Positions 4,105-4,180 of a stretch of DNA of 41,680 bases are shown here, piece by piece. Made by a program: the position numbers and the translations under genes. Position 1 is the first letter of the stretch, and each line of letters begins with the position of its first letter. The stretch comes from a virus, in IMG/VR virus record IMGVR_UViG_3300036905_000054; one strand, written 5' to 3'. Under the pieces are notes generated by a model, which was given only the letters and a program-made list of their open reading frames with translations, ran no database searches and was not told the origin of the DNA.

Positions 4105-4180
4105 GGCAGGGGTGACAGGATTCGAACCTGCTTAACTCCGTTTTGGAGACGGATGCCCTTCCCATCGGGTCATCACCCCT
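4105..4180 (-). tRNA. tRNA-Trp (CCA); 3' end encoded as CCU, not CCA
   Basis: RC: AGGGGTG AT GACCCGATGGGAAGGGCA TCCGT CTCCAAA ACGGA GTTAA GCAGG TTCGAAT CCTGT CACCCCT G CC T. Confidence 0.75.

Follow-up and report, generated by a model that had tools for sequence, protein, structure and literature searches.

A predicted RlaP-family RNA 3'-end nucleotidyltransferase and two tRNA genes without an encoded A76 in an uncultivated giant phage

Introduction

Does a giant phage in which some tRNA genes lack the final A of the CCA end encode the enzyme that completes them? This question is raised by IMG/VR virus record IMGVR_UViG_3300036905_000054, a stretch of 41,680 nucleotides (here called the window, meaning the whole stretch of DNA that was analyzed). 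Two of its tRNA genes, tRNA-Trp and tRNA-Ser(CGA), stop at CC and continue with T, and a gene at 5953-6786 encodes a 277-amino-acid (277-aa) protein of the Pol-beta nucleotidyltransferase superfamily. A first-pass annotation linked the protein to these two tRNAs as a possible minimal A-adding or CCA-repair enzyme, named a CD-NTase-like signaling enzyme as the alternative, and held that the class could not be assigned from motifs. On the sequence evidence presented here, the protein is a new member of RlaP, a known family of RNA 3'-end nucleotide-adding enzymes that is common in phages, and is predicted to be neither a CCA- or A-adding nor a signaling enzyme. We consider it probable that this is an RlaP-family repair enzyme, that the CC-ending tRNAs of the same genome are matured by the host, and that the two do not form a dedicated pair. 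The three features are as follows.

5953-6786, minus strand: predicted RlaP-family (PF10127) RNA 3'-end nucleotidyltransferase, 277 aa (Pfam, PHROGs, homologs, catalytic residues, and AlphaFold2 [AF2] model)
4105-4180, minus strand: tRNA-Trp (CCA anticodon), called by ARAGORN, Rfam 39.3 bits (gathering score, 29); G73-C74-C75 and then TTT, A76 not encoded
14052-14140, minus strand: tRNA-Ser(CGA), divergent class II, called by ARAGORN; G73-C74-C75 and then TTT

Peat and bog metagenomes are the source of the uncultivated giant phage to which the window belongs, and every gene and tRNA of the window is on the minus strand. Six independent peat/bog assemblies of the same phage (L001 to L006) were found, and the identical nucleotidyltransferase protein (P0001) occurs on many contigs. 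The contigs of this phage reach lengths of up to 178 kb, and ERZ27254043 k141_315137 is one example of the longer ones. The inspection covered about 60 kb, whereas the whole genome may be longer than 400 kb. A megablast search with window positions 1-20000 gave zero matches in 50,697 phage records, indicating that the phage has no close cultured relative. Related phages were found on contigs of 37 to 894 kb (L007, L008, L009, L057, L058, and L060/L061), and their nucleotidyltransferases are 42 to 62% identical to that of the window.

Results and Discussion

Family assignment of the nucleotidyltransferase

The open reading frame (ORF), its coordinates, and the superfamily were as first annotated; the strand, which had not been stated, is minus. 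The protein scored 67.2 bits (E = 2.4e-18) with PF10127 (RlaP, "RNA repair pathway DNA polymerase beta family"), for which the cut-off is 23, and no other Pfam family matched even at E <= 10. Profile searches thus assign the class that motifs had seemed to leave open. The protein also matched phrog_388, annotated as "nucleotidyltransferase" (E = 4.7e-46). There were 272 homologs, and PF10127 was present in all 120 among the matches listed. An IMG/VR scan for RlaP relatives with the single sequence was empty, whereas the alignment-based scan succeeded. With tblastn, the family was detected in 694 phage records; 342 of these are mycobacteriophages and 53 are Escherichia phages, and the identity was <35% throughout.

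The residues G25, S26, D38, D40, and D91, which form the GS...DxD...D catalytic set, are invariant in an alignment of 30 sequences (A1), suggesting that the enzyme should be active. In the AF2 model (predicted local distance difference test score, 92.8), residues 1-96 form a beta-rich part and residues 97-266 are helical. This predicted build fits the published description of the PfRlaP crystal structure, with its N-terminal nucleotidyltransferase domain and C-terminal helical domain. The best viral fold matches were nucleotidyltransferases of jumbo phages, namely, Bacillus phage G gp218 (template modeling [TM] score, 0.78), BCD7, and PaBG.

The activity of the family was recently described for two Pseudomonas enzymes, PfRlaP and PaRlaP, in a preprint of December 2025 (PMC12776372). 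They add one or two nucleoside monophosphates to the 3'-OH of RNA, do not modify DNA or protein, prefer Mn2+, show little nucleoside triphosphate (NTP) specificity, and accept dATP efficiently when the primer is RNA. When annealed fragments mimicked a cleaved tRNA, the 5' half, with its broken anticodon end, was favored over the 3' acceptor-end fragment. Treatment with RlaP before ligation restored the aminoacylation of a tRNA that was missing one anticodon-loop nucleotide, and E. coli RNAs sized like full-length tRNAs were also labeled. The same source lists T4 NrdC.11 as a member of the family, and Iyer et al. (2021; PMC7824862) found RlaP to be the most prevalent nucleotidyltransferase of jumbo phages. 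The previously unclassified gene is thereby placed in a family with a recently measured activity.

The window protein shares with the Pseudomonas fluorescens and Pseudomonas aeruginosa RlaP, T4 NrdC.11, and gp3 of cluster C mycobacteriophages the profile match and the invariant GS/DxD/D residues, and its modeled two-domain build would be like theirs. Like other members it is phage-borne, and many tRNA and RNA-end-repair genes accompany it in the genome. Unlike them, it is at most about 33 to 35% identical to any protein of an isolated phage, and its gene has no recognizable RNA ligase gene nearby; it follows a homolog of the major vault protein (MVP) and precedes a large tRNA array.

Other nucleotidyltransferase families were considered and rejected. 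No match was obtained with profiles of CCA-adding enzymes, CD-NTases, MNT, or aminoglycoside transferases, and none in PADLOC or NCBIfam; PDB searches with the protein and with its profile returned noise only. The Pol-beta core and untemplated addition to an RNA 3'-OH are features that RlaP has in common with class II CCA-adding enzymes and with the split CC- and A-adding enzymes, and a tRNA ending in CC does need an A-adder. However, class II enzymes are built of head, neck, body, and tail domains and comprise about 400 aa, whereas the window protein has 277 aa without nucleotide-selecting motifs, shows no sequence or fold match to them past the superfamily core, and belongs to a family whose characterized members are not nucleotide specific. 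Neither the PolyA_pol head (PF01743) nor the selecting motifs nor the neck, body, and tail were found, and CCA-adding enzymes were missing from the top fold matches. For the aminoglycoside and lincosamide nucleotidyltransferases (ANT, KNTase, and LinB), neither the family profile nor the C-terminal domain was found. CD-NTases and cGAS-like enzymes gave no PADLOC or Pfam match, and cGAS appeared only at Foldseek probabilities of 0.1 to 0.3 with a TM score of about 0.2. For Hailong HalB, neither a sequence relationship nor a gene for the partner channel HalA was found.

Structure and origin of the CC-ending tRNA genes

ARAGORN and direct reading of the coding strand agree with the first-pass annotation that both tRNAs are encoded with G-CC-U ends. 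The coding-strand 3' ends are ...CACCCCT-G-CC/tttagat for tRNA-Trp and ...ACTCTCT-G-CC/tttaccg for tRNA-Ser(CGA), where the slash follows C75. Both genes have a perfect 7-bp acceptor stem, a discriminator G, and an intact cloverleaf, in which the anticodon and T arms are intact and the anticodon loops are correct. The tRNA-Trp gene has a D stem of 3 bp and also an extra base. This gene is the sole Trp tRNA gene found in the window, and its position is kept in all relatives. The tRNA-Ser(CGA) gene falls below the Rfam tRNA threshold; its best Rfam match is tRNA-Sec, with 26.7 bits, and its position 8 is A, not U.

The CC/T ends are identical in the six independent assemblies L001 to L006, which rules out an assembly error; both genes are genuine, and their ends are fixed in the population of this phage. 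Most other tRNAs of the window encode CCA, as had been noted. ARAGORN called 19 tRNA genes, and one more, at 49-122, was found only by Rfam. The full CCA is encoded in 17 genes other than the two, comprising 16 of the 17 remaining ARAGORN calls and the Rfam-only tRNA.

The order of nucleotidyltransferase, tRNA-Trp, His, several Arg, Asn, Gln, and Lys is common to L007, L008, L009, L057, L058, and L060/L061, and the syntenic tRNA-Trp encodes CCA in all of them. In the ortholog alignment (A2), the window tRNA-Trp has a 3-nt gap, GCC---TTTAG versus GCCAAGTTTA. The tRNA-Ser(CGA) gene ends in GCC-TTTAC versus GCCA-AGTTTA in its neighbors. Both genes look like the common CCA-A(A/G)TTT trailer minus AAG, and the change from CCA-AG-TTTA to CC-TTTA has the appearance of a three-base loss specific to this lineage. 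As judged from these alignments, the CC/T state is derived, because the gap stands against six CCA-encoding relatives and because the other metagenomic sequences with the same final 24 nt as tRNA-Trp all go on to A76 (121 of 121), a background that also marks the CC/T end as unusual. These 121 sequences are unrelated contigs from many environments, not population variants; a tRNA-Trp 3' end with this 24-mer is evidently widespread. Incomplete tails also occur sporadically in relatives, in Ser(TGA) of L008 (G/CTT), Arg(ACG) of L058, and His of L060 (C/CTT). Loss of the encoded tail happens now and then, repeatedly, within the clade. The absence of A76 from the genes is a minor change specific to the lineage, and it shows only that infection has a CCA-completing activity available.

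Relationship between RlaP and the CC-ending tRNAs

The proposed coupling of the nucleotidyltransferase to the two CC-ending tRNAs found no support in the comparison of related loci. RlaP is kept upstream of a CCA-encoding tRNA-Trp, at the same position, in the six related phages named above. The tRNA sets beside RlaP are entirely CCA-encoded in L007 (15/15), L057 (13/13), and L052 (6/6), and in L017 and L018 no tRNA encodes CCA (0/13). The tRNAs of L017 and L018 need all three nucleotides, which would be beyond a nonspecific adder of one or two. The coupling is unsupported because RlaP occurs both with all-CCA and with no-CCA tRNA sets.

For the two tRNAs, the economical explanation is trimming, after which the host would supply the missing A. 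Following general knowledge of bacterial tRNA processing, 3' exonucleases would trim the U-rich trailer and stall at CC, whereupon A76 would come from the CCA-adding enzyme of the host. To our knowledge, a CCA-adding enzyme is present in every bacterial host. In T4, the host RNase BN and tRNA nucleotidyltransferase mature the products of those tRNA genes in which CCA is not encoded. The window resembles T4 in having phage tRNAs partly without CCA together with an RlaP-family protein, and in T4 maturation needs the host enzymes; it differs in that the window genes miss just the final A, in 2 of about 19.

By analogy with the two Pseudomonas enzymes, the phage RlaP would extend a free RNA 3'-OH by one or two nucleotides, without a template and without regard to their kind. 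The 5' half of an anticodon-broken tRNA would be its best substrate, and a ligase would then reseal tRNAs that a host nuclease had shortened by a nucleotide. RlaP would most likely be part of a counter-defense set for tRNA repair and maintenance, together with a Thg1-like protein for 5'-end repair, a PTH2-type hydrolase for the release of stalled peptidyl-tRNA, and the redundant tRNAs of the phage. A tRNA-related role, as raised in the first-pass annotation, is in keeping with the family, which acts on RNA 3' ends, including those of tRNA fragments. Of that interpretation as a whole, the superfamily, the RNA 3'-end family, and the tRNA maintenance toolkit stand; the unassignable class and the tie to the CC-ending tRNAs do not.

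If the protein were instead a minimal A-adding or CCA-repair enzyme, it would complete both tRNAs, mend clipped CCA ends, and free the phage from the host CCA enzyme. The addition of one or two nucleotides to RNA 3'-OH ends and the labeling of E. coli RNAs of full-length-tRNA size by RlaP (PMC12776372) are consistent with this idea, as is the location of RlaP in the clade, 1.8 to 6 kb upstream of an array of 12 to 16 tRNA genes of which tRNA-Trp is the first. The sporadic tRNAs without full CCA in L008, L058, and L060 point the same way, as do the Thg1-like genes at most 6 kb from RlaP in three other phage loci (L010, L032, and L049). However, the RRD and EDxxR motifs were not seen on direct reading of the sequence, and the family has little NTP specificity and disfavors the acceptor-end fragment in the annealed mimic (PMC12776372). 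RlaP is also kept where tRNA-Trp encodes CCA, and the 0/13 tRNAs of L017 and L018 need three nucleotides, too many for a nonspecific adder of one or two. We regard a dedicated A-adding or CCA-repair enzyme as improbable. A broader role is conceivable, in which RlaP of this clade would be a general tRNA 3'-end patcher that adds A76 to the phage's own CC-ending tRNAs and repairs toxin-clipped CCA tails and broken anticodon loops, perhaps with the upstream MVP homolog as a scaffold or compartment. If this were true, the loss of the encoded A76 would be tolerated because the phage carries its own end-repair activity; we give this idea little weight.

A role outside tRNA metabolism, as a CD-NTase-like or HalB-like synthase of signaling or decoy oligonucleotides (oligodeoxyadenylate) that manipulates host defense, would fit the efficient use of dATP on RNA primers by RlaP (PMC12776372). 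HalB (PDB 9dbh/9dbj) is a host defense component that makes oligo-dA; it has no detectable sequence relationship with the window protein (TM score, 0.4 to 0.5), and sequence profiles give no tie to HalB or to any PDB chain. The PADLOC search was empty, cGAS and CD-NTase structures appeared only at a Foldseek probability of about 0.2 and a TM score of about 0.2, and the Pfam assignment to RlaP is unambiguous. This alternative, which the first-pass annotation had kept for the CD-NTase-like case, is therefore highly improbable. The two tRNA genes might, on the other hand, be decaying, nonfunctional copies, in which the missing A is part of the decay and no maturation route is needed. Decay would be in line with the low Rfam score and the A at position 8 of tRNA-Ser(CGA), with the 3-bp D stem and extra base of tRNA-Trp, and with an array in which one tRNA-like gene (2166-2236) is clearly degenerate and many isoacceptors are redundant. 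However, both genes retain all 7 of 7 acceptor pairs, intact anticodon and T arms, correct anticodon loops, and the CC itself; the CCA-encoding His and Arg-TCG tRNAs of this phage are also below the Rfam tRNA threshold, indicating that divergence is general in this phage; and the tRNA-Trp gene is the only one for Trp found in the window, at a position conserved in all relatives. Decay of both genes is unlikely.

Several points weigh against an RlaP repair enzyme alongside host-matured tRNAs, the reading that we prefer. The same apparent loss of AAG in two independent tRNAs is a coincidence that it leaves without explanation. No RNA ligase (RtcB or ATP-dependent Rnl) was found in the ORFs of the window or beside RlaP in L007 to L010 and L060. 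The RNA-ligase neighborhood that gave the RlaP family its name is not universal among its members. RlaP may also have a minor share in acceptor-end addition, including that of A onto tRNA-CC, given the labeling of RNAs of full-length size (PMC12776372). The characterized enzymes are distant (Pseudomonas cluster 1a), and their source is a preprint. A CCA-adding enzyme or a ligase could sit elsewhere in a genome of maybe >400 kb, of which about 60 kb was inspected, and the phage has no assigned host.

Other genes for tRNA maintenance

PTH2 and the Thg1-like gene are present where they had been annotated, on the minus strand, and have Pfam matches above the cut-offs. Together with two further ORFs that could bear on RNA ends or tRNA, they are as follows.

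13352-13627, minus strand: PTH2-type peptidyl-tRNA hydrolase, 91 aa (PF01981, E = 5.4e-12, 46.4 bits versus a cut-off of 23)
39135-39980, minus strand: Thg1-like protein (3'-5' nucleotidyltransferase), 281 aa (PF04446, E = 2.8e-23, 82.7 bits versus a cut-off of 29.2)
10246-10524, minus strand: short ORF with the C-terminal third of a PNKP phosphatase (HAD) domain (PF25109, E = 2.8e-10, profile positions 95-143 of 143)
29488-30258, minus strand: SpoT/RelA-type HD hydrolase domain protein, 256 aa (HD_4, 6.9e-9; TIGR00691, 1.3e-13, N-terminal hydrolase part only)

The PTH2 protein also matched TIGR00283 (E = 3.4e-11), under the NCBIfam equivalog cut-offs and with 91 aa against a profile of 115 positions. 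CCA-adding enzymes, Thg1, and PTH2 have been described as further phage components of RNA repair and rescue (PMC7824862). The "self-contained tRNA maintenance toolkit" of the first-pass annotation is a sound description, already published for jumbo phages in the same study. In contrast to those sets, the present one belongs to an uncultivated peat-bog clade, has an MVP homolog beside RlaP, and includes no ligase or CCA-adding enzyme in the roughly 60 kb inspected. The window is an example of the way in which giant environmental phages combine tRNA arrays with maintenance of the 3' end by RlaP, of the 5' end by a Thg1-like protein, and of peptidyl-tRNA by PTH2. These combined genes probably serve as a countermeasure to tRNA-attacking nucleases of the host.

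Direct reading of tRNA-His (3998-4077, minus strand) gives C73, with a g directly 5' of the gene, at 4078, opposite C73. G-1 of this tRNA appears to be encoded in the genome, so that the Thg1-like enzyme is not obviously required for its normal maturation. In relatives, a truncated HisRS-like gene (155 to 177 aa) lies beside tRNA-His; the window has no such gene.

Neither a complete end-healing kinase/phosphatase nor a CCA-adding enzyme was found with Pfam, PHROGs, NCBIfam, and PADLOC among about 50 ORFs drawn from the window and its relatives. The only ligase in the window is an NAD-dependent DNA ligase (24977-27073, minus strand). The ORF at 10246-10524, which was also called in L001 and other loci, is probably a remnant, as judged from its partial domain. 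The ORF upstream of it (10476-10970, minus strand; 164 aa, phrog_7147) is missing the kinase P-loop and the DxDxT motif, and the region 10246-10970 varies by strain, with a single 224-aa ORF in L003. This region is possibly a decayed end-healing gene. The HD hydrolase would be a stand-alone enzyme like a small alarmone hydrolase, and its membership in the toolkit is conjecture; that it counters host alarmones or tRNA-pyrophosphorylating toxins is speculative.

The major-vault-protein homolog beside RlaP

Directly upstream of RlaP lies a gene for an MVP homolog, which is accompanied by two small ORFs.

7063-9543, minus strand: MVP homolog, 826 aa (MVP_shoulder, 3.6e-26; Vault_3, 1.8e-8)
9544-9807, minus strand: 87-aa ORF abutting the MVP start, kept next to MVP in L057 and L058
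6755-6961, minus strand: 68-aa ORF between MVP and RlaP, overlapping the RlaP start; sequence not conserved

The order small ORF, MVP, (small ORF), RlaP is kept in the closest relatives (L057, L058, L060, and L061), whose RlaP proteins are at least 56% identical to that of the window. The adjacency of MVP and RlaP was not seen in L007 to L009 or at three loci (L064 to L066) with MVP homologs of 45 to 53% identity. At one of these three loci, on NCBI assembly contig GCA_964362205.1, an NYN RNase gene follows the MVP homolog. The pairing may reflect synteny of the clade rather than a functional module, and a module is not claimed because the adjacency is restricted to close relatives. About 6,000 MVP homologs were found in metagenomes, many of them on contigs of >100 kb. 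We know of no function for MVP homologs of bacteria and phages. Because their function is unassigned, the conserved MVP-RlaP pair is the one element that could repay more work.

Remaining tRNA genes and other genes of the phage

The other tRNA genes named in this study are arranged as follows.

1749-4077, minus strand: remainder of the main tRNA array (Phe, Lys, tRNA-like, Asn, Gln, Asn, four Arg, and His); CCA encoded in all but the degenerate tRNA-like gene
13081-14905, minus strand: tRNA-Leu and tRNA-Ser array (TGA, CGA, GGA, and GCT); CCA encoded in all but Ser(CGA)
2166-2236, minus strand: degenerate tRNA-like gene, Rfam tRNA 44.5 bits, 4 or 5 acceptor pairs, anticodon loop of 6 nt (or 8 nt), no CCA
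49-122, minus strand: Rfam-only tRNA (37.2 bits), missed by ARAGORN; good acceptor stem, discriminator A, CCA encoded

The Rfam-only tRNA has the anticodon loop TTCATAA (CAT) and an aberrant D-arm region. For the tRNA-like gene at 2166-2236, ARAGORN called a similar oddity at the equivalent position of L009 (17046-17113); a BLAST comparison of the gene with all loci showed nothing conserved beyond generic tRNA sequence. Nearly every tRNA in the arrays at 1749-4180, 13081-14905, and 37589-38192 (all minus strand) is followed by CCA-A(A/G)(A)TTT, often with the next tRNA 5 nt on, and this trailer/leader motif is conserved and common to the related phages. Isoacceptors are redundant, with three Lys(CTT), four Arg, four Ser, and two Asn genes. 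The tRNA-Gln gene (2537-2625, 89 nt) and one tRNA-Asn gene (2734-2820, 87 nt), both on the minus strand, are far above the normal class I length; L009 and L058 also have long Gln, Asn, Arg, and Trp genes of 86 to 91 nt.

The relatives include contigs of 894,233 bp (L060), 463,033 bp (L009), and 436,173 bp (L061). At roughly double the length of the other two, the L060 contig may represent a concatemer or misassembly; the clade ranks among the largest phage genomes reported. The roughly 8 kb past the Thg1-like gene, outside the window, holds nucleotide-metabolism genes, TnpB, and DNA methylases. Transport and membrane genes, which are unusual in a virus, occupy 17746-22373 (minus strand) and encode an ABC ATPase, a permease-like protein, and a 643-aa OmpA-domain protein; an amino-acid permease gene lies just beyond the window (L001, 18034-19347). 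An AAA ATPase resembling IetA/TRIP13 is encoded at 27908-29419 (minus strand).

Three paralogous small proteins of 140 to 168 aa are encoded at 16250-16756, 16760-17182, and 38381-38815 (minus strand). They had no family match, save a weak, subthreshold match of the protein at 16250-16756 to the PCRF domain. All three start with MCL and have the AWKIV and GFH motifs in common, and the sequence suggests that the N-terminal Cys could be a nucleophile once the Met is removed.
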